Source: Patescibacteria group bacterium (GTDB lineage Bacteria > Patescibacteriota > Patescibacteriia > 2-01-FULL-39-33). Taken from it: DNA of 32,000 nucleotides. The DNA lies in assembly GCA_041649575.1 (NCBI GenBank), contig JBAZMW010000003.1:150001-182000 (forward strand), read 5' to 3'. Positions 13,297 through 22,369 of the stretch are shown here, one piece after another (the first letter of the stretch is position 1; each line of letters starts with the position of its first letter). The notes beneath the pieces were generated by a model. That model was not told the origin of the DNA, made no database searches, and saw only the letters and a program-made list of their open reading frames with translations. The translations under genes were made by a program, and so were the position numbers.

Positions 13297-16200
13297 TTAA
13301 GCTGTCACTACCTTATCTTGTAAAGGCCGAACCGCCTCTATTACTTTTTTCAAGACAGCGGCGGGATTTTTACCGGCATAAGGAGCCGAGCGGCTGACCG
13401 CCTCGCCAGTGCCCCCCTGATGGCTGGCTTCCATCACCAGTTCGGCGGGGTTGATTCGGACATCGATATTACTCTCTGCCAAAGTAAACTGCAGGACACC
13501 TTTGGTCACCTTGGCCGCCGAGGCCTGGCCAGTTATACCGGCCTCAGAAAGAATCTTGGCAACTTCTTTGCTGGGAGCGGTGCCGGCTTCAACCAGTCTA
13601 GTTAACTTAACCCAGCTTTCAAGGTTTGGAGAGTTTAAGACTTCAGTACCGCTAATTAGCTTGCCAACCGCCGAGTCGGGAGCGACTTCTCCGCCAGCAA
13701 AAGTCAGAACCTTTTTGGCCAAATCGGCGCCATGACTTTCTACCAAACCGTTAAGCGTCTCGCCAGGAACAACTTTGGGGTTCCCGCTATAGAAACTAAC
13801 CACTTCTTTGGCCACACCCTTGACTCCCGATGATAAAATTTCGGCCGCTCGGCCTGGTTCAAGTCCGGCCTCATGCGCCTGACCCATCAGGTCGTAGGCG
13901 GACTGATCTAAACTGACACCAGAACCTTTGACCAAGCCGACTACCTGACGCAAATAAGCATTATTAGACTCTATTTGCGATAGAGTTTTCTCGCTTAGCT
14001 TGCCGGCGGCCTGTAAAACCTTTCCTGTATCACCGGTTTTCGGATCAAAAAAGGTGCTGGCCACTAATTCATTAAACTTATCATTACCGGCTAGTTTGGC
14101 CAGATCTTCAGGAGTGACATGATCGATATTAGCCGGTAAACCAAACTCGGTTGGACTTTTGGCAACCGCGTCTTTGATGGAATCAACCAAATAGGTAATC
14201 TTGCCTTCACGAAAGACAGGTAGCTTTTTGAGAGCTTCCGAAGTCATTTTACTAATATCTACATCCTTCGGCAGTCCAAGTTCGGCGGGATAGGTCTGGC
14301 CGCTTTCTATGGCCTTTTTGACTGTTGATCCGAGCGCTGCTTCGCATTTCTTTTCGATAACTCCCCAGACAGTATGCGAACCTTTAGCCTCAACTCCTTC
14401 GACGACTTCCAGCGCTTGCTCAAATTCAGTCAATTTTTCCGGCGCTTCCGGCCCAGGCGCGGTTTCCGTCGTGGCAGATTCTGCTGGCGCGGCACCTGGG
14501 GTATGTTCTGTTGGCGCACCGCCCGAAGCGGCTTCTGGCGCACCGGCGTCCGGCACTCGCGGAGCTCCTTCTGCTGGTGGGTTGCTCCCTTCAACTGTTG
14601 GTTGCTCTGCCGGCGCGGCGCCAGGAGTATGTTCTGCTGACGCTCCACCAGGAGCGGCTTCTGGCGCACCGGCGTCTAGAACTCGCTGAGCTCCTTCTGC
14701 TGGTGGCTGGCCTTCCGGCGAAACGCCGGCATGAGGGGCTTCCGCACCGCTTCCGCCGCTTCCGGCTTCAGCGGCGCCAGTGGCCGCGCCATGACCACGG
14801 AGCCATTGCCAAGGCTGAATACCGACAACCAGGCCAGCGGCGGCGGCTATCACGCCGCGTTGTATTTCTTTTCTTCTTTCAGCTCGGCCGGTTTGCTCTT
14901 CAGCTTGATGGGAAGTGCTAATATAAAAATCCAATTGATTAGACAAGGCATCGGCCAAAGAATAGCCGCTGGTATCAATGGCAGTCAATCTCTCCTCCAT
15001 TCTAGCCAAACTGGCTTGATACATTTGATCAATAACCGGCTTCATTCTATCGCCAAAAACATCTACTTGACGCTTGCCTTTTCTTTCGGCCAAGGCCGTT
15101 ATTCTGGCCAACTCTTCCTTTAAATCCTTATCGCTTAAACTTCCAAACTTTTTTTCTAACCAAGCTTTGGCAGCTTTAGGATCTTTCCTTTTCTCTTTAG
15201 CGTATTCTTTATAAATCTTCTGGGCTAATCCTTTATCTCCAAAACGTTTAGTAAATCTTTCCAGAGCGGCGTCAACACCCATGGCGGTACCGGTACCGCC
15301 AAGTATTCTTCTGGCAAAAAAGACAGCGGTCAGCAACGGCGCCGAAGCGGCGAAAGAAGTGGCAACGGCCGGAGTGGCCAAAGCCACAGCGGCTCCCAAC
15401 AAAGCGCCGGAAACAATCAGTCTGCCAGTGGCATGACGTTGCCACCATCCTTTAAGTCTTTCTCCTCTGCTTTTTTCCTTACCTTCAAACTCGGCCCAGA
15501 CTAGTTGGTTTTCCTTATCATACAAATCAACCAGTCCCTGAGCTAGACGATCTGGAAACATGGCCAGAGGACTAAGTTCACCGGTCTGTACTTTGGATCG
15601 GATCGACTCTTGCAAAGTCGCTTCATAAGAACGCCTTAACTGCTCTAACTTCTGCTCGCCCTTCTTGCCGCGGAATTCGGATTTGCCAATAAGTTTCATC
15701 CTCTCTCGCCTGGCTTGATAATAGGCCTTGCGGGCTTGATCTAGGGTTGGTTTGTCTTCTTCAGTCTCAATTATTATAGGTCCTTCACCAGTTTTATCTG
15801 ATGGAGGAAAAGGAGCGGCATCATCTTCCTCTTCATGAGACTTTAGTGTCGATTCTTCCGATTCATCTTCTAATTCATCTTCCGGCTTCTTTCCTGATTC
15901 CTCAAGCTCACGCACAAGACGTTCAGCCTCAGCTAGATCAAGAGGTGCTGACTCTGACTCTAATGGAGGCGCTATTAATTCCACATCAAGAACCGACTCA
16001 ATCCAAGTCGCGTATGCCTTATTATCGACAAAATTAAAGGTACGTATATAGGGTTTTTCTCCCTCTTCCACTAAACCAAGAAATTTTTCTTCATAGGTCG
16101 CTGATAAATAAGTGACTCTTATCATGCTCCCTGGCTTAATACCCCTAAATTTTTCCAAAAGTCTTTCTGTTCTTTCGGCCGGACTTTCCTCTGGCAACGG

Positions 16201-19143
16201 TGAAGGTCTTTCTGCTTCTTCGTCTGGATTTTCACCCGACTCCGGAGCTGGCGGCGGTGGAGGAGGGAGAACTTCCCCAGATAAATCCCCAAGCGGTGCT
16301 TCTGAATCATCTGGCCGCATCACTTCAACGCTCTCTATTCTATTGGTATTTTCTTGCCTGCCATCTTCAAAAAGCAACAGCATCCCGGCTGTGGTATCCA
16401 CCAATCCCCTGAAGTCTCCGATAAAACTCGATCCGTCCGTACAGACCCCTGCTAGTTTATCGCCAGGCTTACAACCGCGAAGTACTGCAAGTACTCTTTC
16501 TATTCTTTCTTTATCTTTTTTATCTTTATCTTCGGCGTCAGACTCTACCGGCGCAGGCCTAGGCGTTTCAACCGCCTCACTGGTCGCCGTCACCCTAGCT
16601 CTAACAATCTCGCCACCCGGCTTAGTAAAACCCATAGTAACAACCGCAGCAACTTTTAGATTACGGCCCTTGGGACCTTCAGTAAATGTAACCTCATGAT
16701 ACTTCTCATTAATATTATCGCCCAGCTGAACTAGCCAAAGTCTAAAACCAAAACTTTGCATTAACCCTGATAAATATCCGACTTTTGCGGTTTCAAAAAC
16801 GGGACCATTAACCGCATCACAATATTCTCTGCCAATTTCATCTACCAAAACTTGCACCGCGTGCTCTCTGCTTTCTGTTTCTATTTTGTCTTGTAATCCT
16901 CTAGCGCCAGCAGCTAGCTGTCTCATCCCCAAGGCTTCTGCTCTGCTAAGAATTGCTGAGAGCATGGCTTGCAGCTCTTGCTGTTCCGCGCTAAGCTCTG
17001 CTTCTGCTTTTTCGTCTCCTTTTGGTGTTTCTGGCGCCGGCTGTTCGATGGCCGGTGCTAACACCTCAATCTTTGTTATTAAAGAAAGAAGGATCTTTTT
17101 TGGCTTTAAGTCACTTGGTTTGCCTTTGATCTTTACGCGGTCACCTTCCACTCCATCAAAAAAGCCCTCTTCTTTCATTCCGCCCAAATCTACCAAAATC
17201 CTAGTGCCAAGCGGCAAATCTTTTAATTGATCGGCTGTTACTTCCCGTCCTGACTGCTTAGCGCCTAACCGCTCGGCTACCTCATTCATTATTTGCAAAG
17301 CACATTCCCGAACCAAACCTCTGGCGGTTTCTTCTTCGGCGCTTTCTTTTTTGGGCCGATAACGAGCCTCTTGGCCGGCTGCGTTTGCAGCTGTTCTAAA
17401 AAGAGTATTTTCTAAAGCAACCAAATCTTTAGGAAGAACTTTTTCTTCCTGCTCTGTCATGTTCTGGATGATTCTTTGTTTTGTTTCCTCTAAAGCCTTT
17501 TTGAAAGCAGGCAAAAATTTAGTCTCAGATTCACCACTTCCTTCTCCTTTTAATTCTTGATCTTTCGAGCCATTCACTTCGGCCATAATTTGCTCCGCGC
17601 ACGCGCTAACCAGATTTAGAACAGCCGGCTCCTCGGCATGCTTCCAGCCTTTTGTCGCCCTGATAGTTTTGTCGAGAATCGACTTTTCTAATTTATCTTT
17701 TTCTTCCGGCTTAATCCTTCTTCTCTCACTCTTCATTCTTTTGACTATCTCCTCTCGCGTCTGGTCTAATGCCTCTTTAAAAGCTTCCAAGAATGCCTCA
17801 AACTCATTTTTTTCCTCCCCCTTTCTGATAATTTCAGTGTCAATGCTTTCGCCAACCTCGCACTGGGCATTACCCTGTAATAGAATACGACAATTTTTGG
17901 CTTTTCTAATAGCCAGCTTAGCGCCATCCTCAACGACAAATCTGCTATCTGTCGCACTCTCGACTTCCATGGATATCCCGGCTCCGATCTTTTCTCTGCG
18001 CCTGTCGTTCATCTCTCTTCTTCTTACTGTTTTGAGCCCCGATCCTGGCTTTTCTTCTATAGATCCGCCATTCTTCCCGGTGGTATCAAGCTCGGCTTCA
18101 ATTTGTTCAGCGAAATTTTGGGATGCTTGGCGCACCAGGTCTTTTTCGGCTGCCGACTGCGCCTCCAAGCCGGTTTCTTTTTGGACGTCACGCTCAACTG
18201 TCCCAAAAAATATAGTTTTTTGCATATCATTGGCTTCTTGCGCATCATCAGCGCCAGCTCTAATTATGGTTATAAATTCTTGCCTTCTTCCATTTAAAAC
18301 CCTCTCAAAAACAGGCAAAAACCTGTCTCTAAATTCCGGTCTGATTTCTGGCGACTCGGCCGCTGGAGCCCCTCCTTTTATTTCTCCTTTAAACGCGGCA
18401 TGGGTTTCACGCAGCCCCTCTAATTCAGCTACAACTGCTTCTAACTCTTTATATAAAGGATTAAATTCATCTCTTAAAGCTTCTATATCTTCACCTATAC
18501 TCTCTAAAGCCTGCACACTAAAAACCTTATTTATTAAAAAACCCAAAAAACGTTCAATTATTTCAATCTCCTGATTAATGATTTTTTGAGCCCACTCCGG
18601 CTTGGCCTCTACCTTGGCCCTGACACTCGATAAAATAGTTTTGCCTTCAACTATGCCTGATCTCTCTTTGGCCGCGTTAACTTCTGCTCTAATTTGATCA
18701 AGAGCAATTTCGGCTTCTGCCGTCTCGGCCGGTGGCGGCGGGATTTCAACGCCAACTACGGGGAGATGTAATCCTAAAACTGATCTGGCATTATCAATAA
18801 CCCACCGAGCATTTGCCTTGTTGATTACTCCACCACGCCCTTCTTTCTTGAAAGTGTCAGACATATCCAAAATGTGCTCCAGTCCGGCTAAGAGCTCATC
18901 TAATTCCGGCGCCTGCAGGTCGGACAAATCGGACAAAGCATTAAAAGAATCTACAGCAGCCCTGAATTCTTCTACTTCTGGTTCCTTTCTTCCTGAAAGA
19001 TTAGTCTTTATTCTCAAAAGAGCCCTATTTATTCTTTTTCTTTTTTCCTTGTTCTCTTTTCTCTCGGCCTCTGTTGCCTCTCCTTCGGCTCCGGGCTCAA
19101 GCTCGTCTTCTTTGTCTGGAGTTTTTGGTTTATAATCTCCCAT
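13297..19143 (-). CDS. Giant (1,948 aa) modular membrane protein. About 1,240-aa acidic, helix-rich N-terminal region, a TM hairpin, a 145-aa loop, a third TM, a Pro/Ala-rich linker and a 380-aa C-terminal repeat domain
   Basis: Uninterrupted 5,847-nt ORF; all overlapping ORFs are short shadows. TM segments at about aa 1240-1262, 1265-1285 and 1430-1448. There is no N-terminal signal peptide. Internal protein repeats and a GrpE-like segment are described in the findings. Confidence 0.85.
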   Translation of the reverse strand: MGDYKPKTPDKEDELEPGAEGEATEAERKENKEKRKRINRALLRIKTNLSGRKEPEVEEFRAAVDSFNALSDLSDLQAPELDELLAGLEHILDMSDTFKKEGRGGVINKANARWVIDNARSVLGLHLPVVGVEIPPPPAETAEAEIALDQIRAEVNAAKERSGIVEGKTILSSVRAKVEAKPEWAQKIINQEIEIIERFLGFLINKVFSVQALESIGEDIEALRDEFNPLYKELEAVVAELEGLRETHAAFKGEIKGGAPAAESPEIRPEFRDRFLPVFERVLNGRRQEFITIIRAGADDAQEANDMQKTIFFGTVERDVQKETGLEAQSAAEKDLVRQASQNFAEQIEAELDTTGKNGGSIEEKPGSGLKTVRRREMNDRRREKIGAGISMEVESATDSRFVVEDGAKLAIRKAKNCRILLQGNAQCEVGESIDTEIIRKGEEKNEFEAFLEAFKEALDQTREEIVKRMKSERRRIKPEEKDKLEKSILDKTIRATKGWKHAEEPAVLNLVSACAEQIMAEVNGSKDQELKGEGSGESETKFLPAFKKALEETKQRIIQNMTEQEEKVLPKDLVALENTLFRTAANAAGQEARYRPKKESAEEETARGLVRECALQIMNEVAERLGAKQSGREVTADQLKDLPLGTRILVDLGGMKEEGFFDGVEGDRVKIKGKPSDLKPKKILLSLITKIEVLAPAIEQPAPETPKGDEKAEAELSAEQQELQAMLSAILSRAEALGMRQLAAGARGLQDKIETESREHAVQVLVDEIGREYCDAVNGPVFETAKVGYLSGLMQSFGFRLWLVQLGDNINEKYHEVTFTEGPKGRNLKVAAVVTMGFTKPGGEIVRARVTATSEAVETPRPAPVESDAEDKDKKDKERIERVLAVLRGCKPGDKLAGVCTDGSSFIGDFRGLVDTTAGMLLLFEDGRQENTNRIESVEVMRPDDSEAPLGDLSGEVLPPPPPPAPESGENPDEEAERPSPLPEESPAERTERLLEKFRGIKPGSMIRVTYLSATYEEKFLGLVEEGEKPYIRTFNFVDNKAYATWIESVLDVELIAPPLESESAPLDLAEAERLVRELEESGKKPEDELEDESEESTLKSHEEEDDAAPFPPSDKTGEGPIIIETEEDKPTLDQARKAYYQARRERMKLIGKSEFRGKKGEQKLEQLRRSYEATLQESIRSKVQTGELSPLAMFPDRLAQGLVDLYDKENQLVWAEFEGKEKSRGERLKGWWQRHATGRLIVSGALLGAAVALATPAVATSFAASAPLLTAVFFARRILGGTGTAMGVDAALERFTKRFGDKGLAQKIYKEYAKEKRKDPKAAKAWLEKKFGSLSDKDLKEELARITALAERKGKRQVDVFGDRMKPVIDQMYQASLARMEERLTAIDTSGYSLADALSNQLDFYISTSHQAEEQTGRAERRKEIQRGVIAAAAGLVVGIQPWQWLRGHGAATGAAEAGSGGSGAEAPHAGVSPEGQPPAEGAQRVLDAGAPEAAPGGASAEHTPGAAPAEQPTVEGSNPPAEGAPRVPDAGAPEAASGGAPTEHTPGAAPAESATTETAPGPEAPEKLTEFEQALEVVEGVEAKGSHTVWGVIEKKCEAALGSTVKKAIESGQTYPAELGLPKDVDISKMTSEALKKLPVFREGKITYLVDSIKDAVAKSPTEFGLPANIDHVTPEDLAKLAGNDKFNELVASTFFDPKTGDTGKVLQAAGKLSEKTLSQIESNNAYLRQVVGLVKGSGVSLDQSAYDLMGQAHEAGLEPGRAAEILSSGVKGVAKEVVSFYSGNPKVVPGETLNGLVESHGADLAKKVLTFAGGEVAPDSAVGKLISGTEVLNSPNLESWVKLTRLVEAGTAPSKEVAKILSEAGITGQASAAKVTKGVLQFTLAESNIDVRINPAELVMEASHQGGTGEAVSRSAPYAGKNPAAVLKKVIEAVRPLQDKVVTA
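14486..14706 (-). repeat. In-frame tandem duplication, period 126 nt (42 aa), inside the giant ORF
   Basis: The 95-nt cores at 14486-14580 and 14612-14706 align with scattered substitutions. They encode PPAEGA[QP]RV[LP]DAGAPEAA[PS]GGA[SP][AT]EHTPGAAPAE twice. Confidence 0.9.
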
Positions 19144-19168
19144 ATAAATTAATTATTTTTATAATCAA

Positions 19169-19486
19169 TTATTTTAAATTCTCGCGCCAAGCCGCGACAT
19201 CGCCGGCCAGCTGTTCTTTGAAATTGGTGACCTCTTCCAAAATTATCGCCTGCAGATCAACCTTGCCGTTCAAAAACTGTCCGATTTCTTCGTCGGAGAC
19301 GCCTTTGGCGGTGAGTTTGTCAAACTCCAACTGATCCGGCTCGGAGAACTCATCCATCAGACGGAAAGAAACGCGGTCGCTAACCACCTCGTTTAGTTTG
19401 GTGAGTAAAACTTGTTTTTTGGCTTCATCCAGGTTTTCCAGGCCCAAAATGTTGAAAACATTCTGATCCAAAAAGAGTAAATTCAT
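19169..19486 (-). CDS. Small acidic helical protein, hypothetical; first gene of the giant-ORF operon
   Basis: 105-aa ORF, 25 nt upstream of and co-oriented with the giant ORF. Its pattern (LGLENLDEAKKQVLLTKLNEVV...) resembles small conserved CPR proteins, but I cannot name the family with confidence. Confidence 0.6.
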   Translation of the reverse strand: MNLLFLDQNVFNILGLENLDEAKKQVLLTKLNEVVSDRVSFRLMDEFSEPDQLEFDKLTAKGVSDEEIGQFLNGKVDLQAIILEEVTNFKEQLAGDVAAWRENLK

Positions 19487-19574
19487 AAATTTTATTTATT
19501 TTTTATTGTTAATTATTGAATTTTGTTTAAAATAACAGTATTCCAGCTAGAGCTTAATCTGGCTGTCTGAATAT

Positions 19575-19603
19575 ATTATACCAAACAAAGAGAATTGGTG
19601 AAA
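19575..19603 (-). promoter_or_regulatory. Candidate promoter of the operon containing the small acidic protein and the giant ORF
   Basis: On the minus strand: TTTCAC, a 17-nt spacer, then TGgTATAAT (extended -10; TATAAT = 19575-19580). Confidence 0.5.
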
Positions 19604-19703
19604 GGGTGGCAAAATAAATAATTATTAACTAATTTTATTTATACTTTTTGGCTAAAATTAGATAATATTCTTGATAAAAAAGAAGCTTTTTTCTCAACTA
19701 CTA

Positions 19704-19732
19704 TTGACAAATTATTTATGGTATGCTATAAT
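19704..19732 (+). promoter_or_regulatory. Consensus promoter P_A (TTGACA-17-TATAAT with TGc extended -10)
   Basis: ttgaca at 19704-19709, tataat at 19727-19732, spacer exactly 17 nt. 31/34 identical to the promoter at 27944-27972 (minus). Confidence 0.75.
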
Positions 19733-19817
19733 GAGTAGTTCGGTAAGTAACCGAAAGCACATCACAAAGGCAGCCCTGGTAATGACACCGGGGTTCGCAA
19801 GAGAAAAGGAGAAGACG

Positions 19818-20798
19818 ATGGGTACGGACACAGGAATAGAGGACGATGTGGTGATTATTGGTGAGGACACCGGCATCGCTGACACCGGCATCGCTGACAC
19901 AAAGACGAGTCGGCCGAAGCGTAAAGTCGGAATCTGGCGGATCGTGCTGGGCCTGATCGGCCTGGCGCTCATCGCCTTCGCGGCATTGACCGCGTACGGC
20001 CTGATCGTCAAGACCGACGCGATTGACCGGCGTGTCGTCGTGCTGGAAAATCGCGTCGACGGTTTCGACGAACGCATCAAGGCCGGTGACGAGGCGGTCG
20101 AGGACATCTCCAAAGCCACCGACGATCTGTGGAGGCGAATGGCGAATGTCGAGAAACGCTTCGACAAGGATGGAGAATTCGCGAAGACCGTGGCCGCGGT
20201 TGCCAAGACCGCCGAAGACGTGACGGCGCTGCAAGCCGCGGTCGATGAAATCCCCGATGCCATGGCCGAGGCCACAGCTGGAATCGAAGGCCGGGTCAAA
20301 GCCCTCGAAGACGGCGCCGCGCAGGCACAGGAGAGGGCCAGCCGCGAGCTCCTGATGCTCAAGGTTGCCGAGATCCGCCGCGCGAATCCGGCGAGCGATG
20401 TCAGCGCCATGAGCGACGCGGACATTGGCAAGACGCTGGCTGGCAAGGGCGGCAACGATTTTCGCAAGAAGATTGAGGCCGCATACGTCAGCCTCGGAGC
20501 CAAGCCTGTCGTCACGGCACCAGCTCCGGCTCCAGCACCGGCACCAGCGCCAGCGGTAAATCTGGCTGAGGTAGAACGCCGGCTGGACGCGGCCGAGAAA
20601 GAAGTAAAACTTGTCGGGCAAGCCGCCAAAACCTTGGCGACGAATCCTGACAAGCCGAAGCACCTGGTGCGTGGCGCCAAGGCGAGGGCGCTCAAGCTGT
20701 TGGTGGATGTCCCCGACGACTTGCCACCCGCCTCCGCAAGACCGGCATCCCCGAAGAAGGACAACGTCATCCGGCCGGAGTTCGGGGACCGGCCGTAA
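19818..20798 (+). CDS. GC-rich hypothetical single-pass membrane protein with a long Ala/Glu-rich helical ectodomain (cassette A)
   Basis: AAGGAG (19806-19811) lies 6 nt before ATG 19818. The longer track ORF from 19671 would start upstream of the promoter. TM IWRIVLGLIGLALIAFAALTAYGLIV. Contains a DTGIA-DTGIA tandem (15-nt repeat at 19866-19895) and an (AP)6 tract (20518-20556). Confidence 0.7.
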   Translation: MGTDTGIEDDVVIIGEDTGIADTGIADTKTSRPKRKVGIWRIVLGLIGLALIAFAALTAYGLIVKTDAIDRRVVVLENRVDGFDERIKAGDEAVEDISKATDDLWRRMANVEKRFDKDGEFAKTVAAVAKTAEDVTALQAAVDEIPDAMAEATAGIEGRVKALEDGAAQAQERASRELLMLKVAEIRRANPASDVSAMSDADIGKTLAGKGGNDFRKKIEAAYVSLGAKPVVTAPAPAPAPAPAPAVNLAEVERRLDAAEKEVKLVGQAAKTLATNPDKPKHLVRGAKARALKLLVDVPDDLPPASARPASPKKDNVIRPEFGDRP

Positions 20799-20831
20799 CA
20801 CGTACCTTTGATCGCGCACCTCGTGCGTTAG

Positions 20832-20870
20832 CCCCCCCAGACTCTGGCAGTTTCATAGAGTCTGGGGGGT
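20832..20870 (+). terminator. Long hairpin after cassette A
   Basis: 13-bp perfect stem: ccccccagactct (20833-20845) / agagtctgggggg (20857-20869). The T-run is weak and delayed (gaattatttt). Confidence 0.6.
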
Positions 20871-20902
20871 GAATTATTTTAGAGAGATTTTGCTTTTATA
20901 TA

Positions 20903-20931
20903 TTGACTAAACAAGACAAAACTGATAAAAT
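20903..20931 (+). promoter_or_regulatory. Promoter driving the structured GC-rich leader plus tRNA-Asp
   Basis: TTGACT (20903-20908), a 17-nt spacer, then TGaTAAAAT (taaaat = 20926-20931). Confidence 0.65.
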
Positions 20932-20947
20932 TATTTTTGATATTTAT

Positions 20948-21254
20948 GGATTACTGCCCCCGCCAGAATGACTCTGTCGGGCTGGCGCCCGACTGAACGG
21001 CGTTCAGCCGTTCGGGCGGGGCTCAGTCTTGCCCCGTAGAATACTGCTAAAGCAGTAGCGCCAGAGGCGCTATTCTACGGGGTGAAGTTAGAGCGCTCCC
21101 CCTGTCACGGAAGAGGGTCGCCGTAGGCGACGGGCAGAAGCGAGCCATGAGCAAAGCGAATGAAACGAGCGTAGATGAATGCGACCATGGGAGCATTCGG
21201 CTCTGCCAGGAAACATCGGGTGCAACCCGCGACCGTCAAACTTTTTACAAGTTA
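20948..21254 (+). other. Degenerate tRNA-Asp-derived duplicate interrupted by GC-rich, highly base-paired inserts (candidate structured RNA or decayed element)
   Basis: It starts with the same atatttatggatt as the true tRNA-Asp 5' flank and 5' end. Positions 21087-21121 copy the tRNA D/anticodon arm (1 substitution, 2 one-nt insertions). There is a T-arm-like cgggtgcaacccg at about 21216-21228. It contains multiple perfect hairpins. Confidence 0.6.
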
Positions 21255-21262
21255 ATATTTAT

Positions 21263-21336
21263 GGATTGGTAGCTCAGTTGGTTAGAGCGCTCCCCTGTCA
21301 CGGGAGAGGTCGCGGGTTCGAGTCCCGTCCAGTCCG
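21263..21336 (+). tRNA. tRNA-Asp (anticodon GUC)
   Basis: Acceptor ggattgg/ccagtcc (one G:U pair), D arm gctc-agttggtta-gagc, anticodon arm ctccc-ctgtcac-gggag, T arm gcggg-ttcgagt-cccgt. Confidence 0.9.
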
Positions 21337-21347
21337 CTGGATAAAAC

Positions 21348-21377
21348 AAAAATCACCCTTGCGGTGATTTTTGTTTT
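21348..21377 (+). terminator. Terminator after tRNA-Asp
   Basis: aaaaatcacc-cttgc-ggtgattttt followed by gtttt. Confidence 0.75.
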
Positions 21378-21514
21378 ACTACACGAAGTGGAGAGGGGCT
21401 CGAACGGGTTGGCAGCGAGGCAAATCCGAAGGATGCAGCCGAGCGTCAAAAATTGCGAGCTGGCGCAGCAATTTTTGCCAACCCAGGACAGAGTGAGCAA
21501 AGCGAACGCCGAGA

Positions 21515-21531
21515 AGTCCCGTCCAGTCCGC
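21515..21531 (+). repeat. Exact 17-bp copy of the tRNA-Asp 3' end (att-like direct repeat)
   Basis: agtcccgtccagtccgc at 21515-21531 is identical to 21321-21337 within, and just past, the tRNA. Confidence 0.9.
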
Positions 21532-21541
21532 ATTTTTCTAG

Positions 21542-21565
21542 TCAGCCCCAAGTGGGCTGATTTTT
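21542..21565 (+). terminator. Second plus-strand terminator, directly after the duplicated tRNA 3' end
   Basis: tcagccc-caagt-gggctga followed by ttttt. Confidence 0.7.
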
Positions 21566-21640
21566 GAGAATAAAAAAGAGCGGCGATCCACACGACGGTG
21601 AATCTCCCGCTCTACAATGTCCTGATAGCCTTTCAGCGGT

Positions 21641-22369
21641 TTATCCTCTGCCACCGCCGACCAGTGCGCGTAACGCGTTGAACATGCCATCAGCCACTTG
21701 TGTCCTTCGCGTATCCATGGACTCAAGCATGGCATCGATCCTGTCGAAGCCGTCTCGACCGTACTCAAGAAGTGTTGGGCCATAGAATAGCCGCGTGAAC
21801 AGTTCATTACCGACAAAACTCCATTCGGTGTAAGGCGTCTCTGAGTAACCGTCAGAGTTGTCGTGGATGTCGAAAACCCTGTTGGTGTGCGTACCGGCGA
21901 TGAGAATATCGCCACCCTCGACTTGTCCGGTTACAGTCACCAACGCCTGTTGAAGCCTCTCCATAAAATACTCCTGGTACCACTCCCTGACTTTCGTCAG
22001 GACAATGTTTCTCGATTCCTCCGGAAGATTGGTGACAATGTGCCCGGTCTGCCTCGGACTGAGCCTGACCATCGAGTTGCTGCTCAACTTGTCCAAGAAC
22101 ACGCCCAGACCGATGTTCAACCAGAGGCCATCCGTGAGGTTGAGAATGGGAGAGTTGATGATAAAGATGTGTGTCCTAGCTTGATCTGGGTCCTGGGCAA
22201 TTCGACGAATGACCTCCAGTCCGTCTTGTTGGTTGAGACAAAGGTGGGGACGAAAACAGCTTTCTTTCGCTTGCACTAGGGCAGCAATTCCCCTGTTAAG
22301 ATCCTGGTGCAACTGTGACCGGTCGTCAAAGTCAACCAGTAGGGTGTGGCTTTTCTTCTGATCCGACAT
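21641..22369 (-). CDS. GC-rich hypothetical cytoplasmic protein (cassette B), 242 aa
   Basis: GAGGAG lies 6 nt before ATG 22369. No TM segment. The N-terminal half alternates beta/alpha like a Rossmann/receiver-type fold (TLLVDFDD ... HIFIINSPILNLTDGLW), but this is only a weak resemblance. Hairpin plus T-run terminator at about 21572-21613 (minus). Confidence 0.65.
   Translation of the reverse strand: MSDQKKSHTLLVDFDDRSQLHQDLNRGIAALVQAKESCFRPHLCLNQQDGLEVIRRIAQDPDQARTHIFIINSPILNLTDGLWLNIGLGVFLDKLSSNSMVRLSPRQTGHIVTNLPEESRNIVLTKVREWYQEYFMERLQQALVTVTGQVEGGDILIAGTHTNRVFDIHDNSDGYSETPYTEWSFVGNELFTRLFYGPTLLEYGRDGFDRIDAMLESMDTRRTQVADGMFNALRALVGGGRG

Follow-up and report, generated by a model that had tools for sequence, protein, structure and literature searches.

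Background

The tRNA-linked repeats (TLRs) of Escherichia coli have been known since 1978, in the account given by PMC8144298, which cites Egan and Landy 1978 and Rudd 1999. Operons for tRNA or rRNA at ten loci of E. coli K-12 contain 22 TLRs between them, and 18-19 bp at the 3' end of every one of them are those of the 3' end of the gene just upstream (PMC8144298). TLRs have no known function and no agreed origin; for three of them, which lie between dual terminators, read-through transcription, processing and binding to Hfq and CsrA in vitro have been described (PMC8144298). Examples are the rtT/RttR units behind tyrT/tyrV (Rfam RF00391) and rrA, rrB and rrF behind 5S rRNA. Here we analyse a 32,000-nt stretch of DNA from a Patescibacteria group bacterium (the window; positions 150,001 to 182,000 of contig JBAZMW010000003.1, assembly GCA_041649575.1), in which the gene for tRNA-Asp(GUC) has on either side a unit of a repeat family that we call R1. 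The layout of the units is already known from the E. coli TLRs. The R1 family, its core and its members on the 5' side of tRNA genes are not described in the literature that we searched, and nothing relevant on Patescibacteria or on insertions into tRNA loops turned up there. An earlier note on this DNA had read the locus as the scars of serial integration and decay at a tRNA gene. We think it about as probable as all other accounts together that the R1 units are instead a DNA-level repeat whose spread takes place at tRNA-gene loops.

Other systems share parts of this arrangement. Cis-mobilizable elements (CIMEs), known from work on the integrative and conjugative elements and CIMEs of Streptococcus, are integrase-less derivatives of tRNA-integrating islands that are flanked by attachment (att) sites, and Williams is said to have set out, in 2002, a T-loop class of island att sites. 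The integron attC site and the attP(+) hairpin of the CTX phage are folded single-strand recombination sites, and SegB of phage T4 is a free-standing homing endonuclease.

The tRNA-Asp locus holds two intact repeat units

The locus contains two tRNA-linked repeat units, both intact, and a second tRNA-Asp copy, in tandem, that is dead (Table 1; coordinates are window positions unless a contig is named). R1 is a covariance model of a multi-helix core of ~95 nt, with a starting alignment of eleven cores from seven genomes. Common to all eleven cores are the invariant helix GGGTTGG/CCAACCC, a pair of inner helices and unpaired motifs that are conserved, and RNAalifold finds compensatory changes in 11 of their 21 pairs. 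Across 47 units, in an alignment that was itself fitted to the model, 95.5% of the helix cells pair and 19 of the 21 pairs vary on both sides, against 27-44% pairing in slid controls. When Rfam 15 was searched against the locus at permissive thresholds, the tRNA alone was matched; there was no match to RtT, to a group I intron, to a ribozyme or to a model of the transfer-messenger RNA (tmRNA) kind.

On the downstream side, the order is tRNA, terminator, inverted T-loop/T-stem copy, core, the tRNA 3' end once more (17 nt) and second terminator, and GGGGCT of the inverted arm pairs with AGTCCC at 21515-21520, at the start of this repeated 3' end. The 17-mer, AGTCCCGTCCAGTCCGC, is exact at 21321-21337 and 21515-21531 and its second copy is followed by a hairpin and T-run, as the earlier note had observed. 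The repeat begins in the T-loop and stops where the tRNA stops, and the pair is, judged by its sequence, a junction duplication of the T-loop type at a tRNA gene. The 177 nt between the two copies contain only the terminator and the R1 unit, so the remark that no integrase or element genes lie there also stands.

This downstream unit resembles a TLR in several respects. It lies 64 nt behind its tRNA on the same strand, its last part repeats the 3' end of that tRNA exactly (17 nt here, 17-19 nt in E. coli), and it stands between two terminators, as do the rrn-linked TLRs of E. coli (PMC8144298). In our reading of the K-12 tyrV locus, tandem units of 178 nt have a GC-rich core, a copy, ATCCTTCCCCCACCACCA, and an inverted arm, GGGGAAGGAT, that faces ATCCTTCCCC; the inverted arm and GC-rich core match the window's downstream unit, and tandem stacking is found elsewhere in the R1 family. 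Homology in sequence or structure is, however, not detectable: 20700-21700 has no RF00391 match at E values up to 10, and R1 scores at most 6.9 bits anywhere on the E. coli tyrV locus and ~1 bit within the TLR units. The R1 family has a core of its own, with a GGGTTGG/CCAACCC or GGGCAG/CTGCCC helix and AAGCGAG and GAGC..GCGCA loops, and its members also occur on the 5' side, inside partial or dead tRNA copies, of which PMC8144298 describes none for E. coli.

The upstream unit is of this second sort. It sits between the anticodon arm and the T-arm of the dead tRNA-Asp copy, which carries three insertions, the R1 unit and two unrelated hairpin modules. The unit is preceded by a small hairpin, GTCGC-CGTAG-GCGAC (21117-21131), and closed by AACCCGCGACC together with GGTCGC at 21116-21121. 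The earlier note had found the 13-mer ATATTTATGGATT at 20940-20952 and 21255-21267, bracketing a GC-rich segment of 302 nt (20953-21254; 59% GC against 44% for the genome), and these observations are correct. The repeat extends to 16 nt with 1 mismatch (20937-20952/21252-21267), and, rather than an att pair, it more plausibly represents the leader and 5' end of each of two tRNA-Asp copies in tandem. The partial tRNA copy described within the segment is likewise real: GTTAGAGCGCTCCCC at 21087-21101 is identical to 21281-21295, and CCCCTGTCACGGAAGAGG is 94% identical between 21099-21116 and 21292-21309, in agreement with the 1 substitution and single-base insertions reported. Of the "degenerate T-arm" placed beside it, a hairpin exists (CGGG-TGCAA-CCCG, 21216-21228), but its 3' part, AACCCGCGACC, is an inverted copy of tRNA nt 46-56. 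A further 13-mer, TGAGCAAAGCGAA, which the earlier note did not mention, links the GC-rich blocks on the two sides of the tRNA: it occurs at 21148, inside the upstream unit, and at 21494.

R1 units accompany tRNA genes across one bacterial family

The window lies on contig 3 of a genome of 0.92 Mb (44% GC, 98% complete), in which all 8 full-length R1 copies, the two of the tRNA-Asp locus among them, adjoin tRNA genes and are on the tRNA strand. Across its bacterial family we count ~200 R1 copies in 29 of 34 species genomes, with 0-18 per genome; two of the five family genomes that have none are 99-100% complete. Beyond the family, an even sample of 150 genomes of the phylum yielded R1 matches in just three other genomes. 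About half of the 50 tRNA genes of the window genome have partial copies of themselves, of at least 11 nt, within 600 nt. Parts of the two GC-rich blocks of the tRNA-Asp locus are found again beside other tRNA genes. GC-rich blocks lie 3' of tRNA-Gly(TCC), Ser(CGA), Ser(GCU), Ile(UAU) and Gly(GCC), each of them ending in an exact copy of the last 16-25 nt of its own tRNA, and tRNA-Asn has a block on its 5' side that is itself preceded by a copy of the leader and the first 11 nt.

For a census, we took 120 units from 30 genomes, beside tRNAs of eighteen amino-acid kinds. Just over half (61 of the 120) lie 3' of a tRNA on the same strand, at 17-129 nt, usually with a terminator hairpin alone intervening. 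An exact copy of the last 14-19 nt of the tRNA follows 47 of these 61 downstream units, and an inverted T-loop/T-stem copy of at least 8 nt is found within the 25 nt before the core in 44 of them, the maximum after shuffling being 6. The exact 3' copy (at least 9 nt) has been lost in 14 of the 61, which is expected of ageing insertions. A further 37 units lie just 5' of a same-strand tRNA. They are preceded by the leader and tRNA nt 1 to ~19, and after the unit the dead copy restarts at about nt 20 (for example CCCAGGA|TAGAGCG), to be followed by an AT-rich spacer and the live tRNA. After units of this D-loop type, inverted tRNA copies are no more frequent than in the shuffled control; the exceptions are the variable-loop tRNA-Asp cases of the window and of two relatives (G026 and G003) and one tRNA-Gly. 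No unit (0/120) is on the strand opposite to the neighbouring tRNA, and 22 have no tRNA within 130 nt, some of these being stacked tandem units.

At loci L107, L141, L143, L057 and L096, which belong to genomes G003, G011, G010, G019 and G032, a single tRNA is followed by tandem units that are identical or nearly so and spaced 160-280 nt apart; these resemble the 3.14 tandem units behind E. coli tyrV. Many units also contain an 11-nt hairpin loop or linker represented by GAGCAAAGCGA (21148-21160 and 21494-21506, and also at locus L039) and its relatives GAGCGAAGCGA and GAGCAGAGCGA. GAGCAAAGCGA resembles the P4 loop GAGCTGGCGCA, and this could be a candidate shared motif for protein binding or tertiary contact.

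The R1 family is an independent and much richer TLR-like family in very distant bacteria with tiny genomes. With a core that can be modelled, a total of ~200 copies among the 34 genomes, members that lie 5' as well as 3' of tRNA genes and clear gains and losses between relatives, it opens to comparative and experimental test both the choice between a small-RNA gene and selfish DNA and the manner in which such units acquire ends that match their tRNA.

Relatives reveal separate layers at tRNA genes

In G026 and G003, which represent two other genera, rplT is followed directly by the upstream arrangement. The dead anticodon arm, the B unit and the inverted T-stem copy are common to both genomes and the window genome (G000), as is an extra G in the arm's variable region, while the small hairpin modules take differing positions in the three genomes. 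In each of the two relatives, the dead anticodon stem and the inverted copy match the genome's own live tRNA, which points to gene conversion or selection as the probable cause. Occupancy of tRNA-Asp differs among G000, G003, G005, G020, G026 and G031.

One of these genomes, G020, has an island of 6.3 kb after its live tRNA-Asp (locus L044, C3:102800-110300). The island encodes a large serine recombinase of 510 aa, whose reading frame ends inside the tRNA 3' end, and a tyrosine integrase of 372 aa; on its 3' side comes a degenerate copy of the tRNA end, and beyond that lie the terminator, A unit and 3' copy known from the window. The same recombinase end follows the tRNA-Asp of G026. Because of the G020 island, we regard tRNA-Asp as a real site of serial insertion, and because the R1 unit lies outside that island, beyond the middle 3' copy, we regard the unit as a separate and older layer.

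At tRNA-Gln(CTG), a unit is present in G001, G002 and G003 and there is none in G004; among the three that have it, whole hairpins have been swapped between orthologues. In genus g2, the flanks that we compared are too diverged to define the exact boundaries of the insert. No empty-site allele was found in the metagenome contigs.

A repeat of DNA or a small RNA

The co-variation of the helices may be read in two ways. On the reading that we favour, the DNA-level repeat, tRNA-gene loops would be the places where units are gained, lost and duplicated, and every event would keep an intact tRNA gene and strand a piece of tRNA: the 3' end for T-loop events, and the leader with the 5' part for events in the D-loop or variable loop. 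Spread from one tRNA to another would probably occur by recombination at the shared D-loop/T-loop consensus, or by a recombinase acting on the folded unit. The units would be transcribed passively within the tRNA operon, the sole good promoter lying 5' of the dead copy, and the fold would be a property of the repeat DNA, or of its propagating form, and not of a selected cellular RNA.

The second reading, which we consider possible though somewhat doubtful, is that the units are genes for small structured RNAs that serve the cell, like RttR and RrA/B/F of E. coli. Such an RNA would be made by read-through from the tRNA promoter and its excision aided by the tRNA-like ends, the inverted arm, paired with the tRNA 3' copy, mimicking a T-arm and acceptor region for the enzymes that process tRNA 3' ends; roles as a protein sponge or as a factor in tRNA processing or quality control may be proposed. 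The strict co-orientation of the units (98 of the 120 with a tRNA, none opposite) and the strong covariation agree with this, and the promoter 5' of the dead copy would place the upstream unit within the pre-tRNA leader.

Part of what leads us to favour a repeat of DNA is the nature of the mispairs. In 116 distinct units, 93.7% of the helix cells are Watson-Crick, and G-T and A-C occur with nearly equal frequency (51 against 43, p = 0.47), whereas the 50 tRNAs of the window genome have 67 G-U and 0 A-C, a contrast that is suggestive and not decisive, as the tools that detected the tRNAs and units, ARAGORN and Infernal, are each biased towards paired cells. If an RNA fold were selected, G-U should be accepted much more readily than A-C; near-equal numbers suggest either that pairing matters on both strands or that the mispairs are recent, unselected mutations in copies of a palindromic repeat. 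The earlier note had named conservation of the arrangement with covariation as a sign of a functional RNA; relatives do keep the upstream arrangement, but the pairing is without the wobble signature of an RNA fold. Variable copy number, differing occupancy among relatives, decayed ends, tandem stacking and the hairpin before the downstream unit likewise favour the DNA-level repeat. For a small RNA that serves the cell, the range of 0-18 copies per genome and the complete or nearly complete genomes that have none are unexpected, as are the many copies with decayed ends; units lie behind a terminator-like hairpin, the consensus scan found no promoter of their own, and most E. coli TLRs are themselves without known function (PMC8144298).

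Several observations weigh against a repeat of DNA, some of them also speaking for the small RNA. The unpaired motifs of the core, AAGCGAG and GAGC..GCGCA, are conserved. The upstream arrangement is kept across three genera, with a highly identical dead anticodon arm, and at tRNA-Gln the helices of three species have diverged, yet their 3' copies remain 100% conserved; selection for function could account for both. Transcribed and processed RNAs are known among the E. coli TLRs, whose layout is the same, and binding to Hfq and CsrA in vitro is described for three (PMC8144298). Moreover, we identified no mobilising enzyme and no empty-site allele, and a Y1 transposase was not found in the window genome. 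Finally, the units and the small GIY-YIG nuclease genes described below co-occur just loosely in the 34 genomes: five genomes have 5-9 units and no such gene, and G025 has four such genes and no unit.

A more far-reaching version of the DNA-level repeat, which we put forward as speculation and think unlikely, is that the units are protein-less selfish DNA that folds, when single-stranded, as a mimic of a T-arm or D-arm and is set into tRNA loops by a recombination or repair enzyme of the host, the matched piece of tRNA keeping the gene alive; the E. coli TLRs and the R1 family would then be two branches of one ancient and hitherto unrecognised class of tRNA-gene parasites. Between the R1 units and attC or the CTX attP(+) there is an analogy: inverse and direct target copies clamp a structured, almost purely Watson-Crick centre, two helices are split by an unpaired bubble, and the direct copy is shared with the target. 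The R1 repeat differs in being 14-19 nt long and not 7, its boxes misfit RYYYAAC/GTTRRRY, and it has no cassette gene.

Other candidates were rejected. For an integron attC, GGGTTGG...CCAACCC is in the order opposite to that of the attC boxes and a cassette gene is lacking (IntI was not searched for). A MITE (miniature inverted-repeat transposable element) or REPIN does not fit, as the outer inverted arms are derived from tRNA and differ from tRNA to tRNA, the duplications are of 14-90 nt and the genome has no Y1 transposase. Copying from mature tRNA, to which CCA has been added, was set aside, since CCA does not regularly come after the copies, and leader sequence forms part of the 5' repeats. 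No acceptor-stem partner was seen by eye that would make a tRNA-like minihelix of the downstream unit, and an informal comparison with the cores of known self-cleaving ribozymes gave no fit.

A proposed derivation from integrated islands

The earlier note's own account held that islands carrying an integrase had entered tRNA-Asp serially and lost their genes, leaving attL/attR scars and, perhaps as their remaining ends, the GC-rich blocks. Parts of it are borne out: junction duplications exist, the locus is layered, a repeat running from the T-loop to the tRNA 3' end is the classical T-loop att signature, and tRNA-Asp does receive islands, as seen from the two-recombinase island of G020 and the same recombinase end in G026. 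The part concerning decayed leftovers fails, each GC-rich segment containing an intact, conserved and covarying R1 unit. The G020 unit lies outside the island there; the 61 downstream units of the census stand close behind their tRNAs with the terminator alone between and no cargo; and a 95-nt core that is intact, covarying and the same beside 18 tRNA kinds is not what independent decay would produce. The 37 upstream units, in 5' partial copies, are not a product of islands that integrate at the 3' end. We found no recombinase family in the scanned open reading frames (ORFs) adjoining the locus and no integrase in the window, and the sole two tyrosine recombinase genes of the genome are on another contig. 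As a full account, the derivation from islands is therefore largely refuted and we think it very unlikely; the R1 units do not appear to be remnants of gene-carrying islands.

With CIMEs and island att sites of the T-loop class, the locus shares a directly repeated tRNA 3' segment that begins in the T-loop, the lack of a recombinase between the copies and the layers at one tRNA. R1 units, in contrast, are without cargo, are of a uniform ~150-190 nt, have one folded core at 18 tRNA kinds, and have an inverted tRNA arm and a 5'-side variety. Annotators should be warned that partial tRNA copies and GC-rich islands beside tRNAs in these genomes are not simply the scars of decayed prophages.

That the repeats arose by chance or by misassembly is hardly conceivable, even though the region is tiled by several short contigs of which none spans it all, since the same layouts occur in dozens of other genomes, the Logan contigs (an independent assembly of the one public run carrying this DNA, probably that of the source sample) tile 20600-21900 at an even depth of ~28-34 with no differing letters or alternative joints, and when 20700-21700 was shuffled 500 times with dinucleotides preserved, exact direct repeats never grew beyond 12 nt, against the 17 nt and several repeats of at least 13 nt observed. 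That run is of DNA, and no RNA run carrying the sequence was found.

Companion genes at tRNA flanks

The window genome has genes for small GIY-YIG nucleases (94-128 aa) at C4:46997-47212 (-), C4:90288-90488 (-) and C5:20836-21042 (+), C2, C4 and C5 denoting contigs of this genome. One such gene separates live tRNA-Ile(GAU) from the displaced 3' two-thirds of that tRNA, another has live tRNA-Ser(CGA) on one side and, on the other, a stranded 5' copy that carries twin GC hairpins, and a third precedes tRNA-Glu(UUC). They fill the same slots beside tRNAs as the R1 units, from which we conclude that selfish DNA inserts at the tRNA flanks of this genome. SegB, the homing endonuclease named above, may be compared with these cassettes, but the R1 units encode no protein. 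One of the small GIY-YIG genes has an internal TAA stop, and the stranded pieces of tRNA-Ile on both sides share an altered anticodon arm, TCCCGATATATCGGGA.

Three homologues of serine recombinases are present in the window genome, two of them right behind tRNA-Asn and tRNA-Glu. With the criteria used, no direct or inverted copy of the tRNA end was found within 15 kb at these two islands.

Features of the locus and its surroundings

The features of the locus are collected in Table 1. The consensus scan found no promoter-like site immediately 5' of the live tRNA-Asp that is comparable to the one 5' of the dead copy, and the consensus scanner did not flag the terminator-like hairpin that follows the live gene.

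Table 1. Features of the tRNA-Asp locus, in window coordinates
Position	Strand	Feature	Basis
20903-20931	+	promoter-like TTGACT-17-TAAAAT, 10/12 matches, TG extension; 5' of dead tRNA copy	consensus scan
20937-20952	+	leader and tRNA-Asp nt 1-5, left copy TTGATATTTATGGATT; opens dead tandem tRNA-Asp	repeat finder
20953-21016		insertion 1 in dead copy: nested GC-rich palindromic hairpin module	
21017-21024	+	GGCTCAGT, D-arm 5' fragment of dead copy	compared by reading with tRNA 21272-21278
21029-21082		insertion 2 in dead copy: long hairpin, 12-nt perfect arms (21032-21043/21071-21082), two small inner hairpins	
21087-21121	+	D-stem 3' strand, anticodon arm (anticodon GTC retained) and variable region of dead copy; copy of 21281-21313	
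21127-21216	+	upstream R1 unit, B subtype, closing helix GGGCAG/CTGCC	R1: 34.5 bits, E ~1e-5, full model length
21224-21234	+	AACCCGCGACC, inverted copy of tRNA nt 46-56 (21308-21318)	repeat finder
21252-21267	+	leader and tRNA nt 1-5, right copy TTAATATTTATGGATT	repeat finder
21263-21337	+	live tRNA-Asp(GUC)	69.6 bits
21342-21378	+	terminator-like hairpin, 16-nt perfect arms and T-run, between tRNA and downstream unit	repeat finder
21395-21405	+	inverted arm GGGGCTCGAAC, reverse complement of T-loop and T-stem 3' strand, 1 mismatch	
21401-21493	+	downstream R1 unit, A subtype, closing helix GGGTTGG/CCAACCC	R1: 98.5 bits, E ~3e-20
21494-21514	+	linker containing TGAGCAAAGCGAA	repeat finder
21515-21531	+	exact 17-nt copy of tRNA-Asp 3' end, begins in T-loop	repeat finder
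21542-21565	+	second terminator-like hairpin TCAGCCC/GGGCTGA and TTTTT	

The module of insertion 1 is of a second, unrelated kind of nested GC hairpin, the CCCGCC...GGCGGG type, which is found in either orientation, inside dead tRNA copies and in ordinary intergenic DNA. A 35-nt part of it recurs with 100% identity at C4:47367-47401, in the orientation opposite to that of the tRNA-Ile there, a 30-nt part recurs at C2:92839-92867, distant from any tRNA, and near-identical pieces of this type of module are present in G006 and G025.

The gene content of the window includes infC, rplT, a tmRNA gene and a DUF5663 gene. In G000, rplT is parted from the tRNA-Asp locus by a 7.6-kb segment (13297-20900) that is absent from G026 and G003 and that, by this comparison of sequences, is a putative lineage-specific insertion 5' of the tRNA promoter. 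The segment carries the DUF5663 gene, a 375-aa coiled-coil, Ala-Pro-rich ORF (63% GC) and a 1948-aa ORF that has no Pfam match; within the last of these lies a patch of 66% GC, at 14400-14800.

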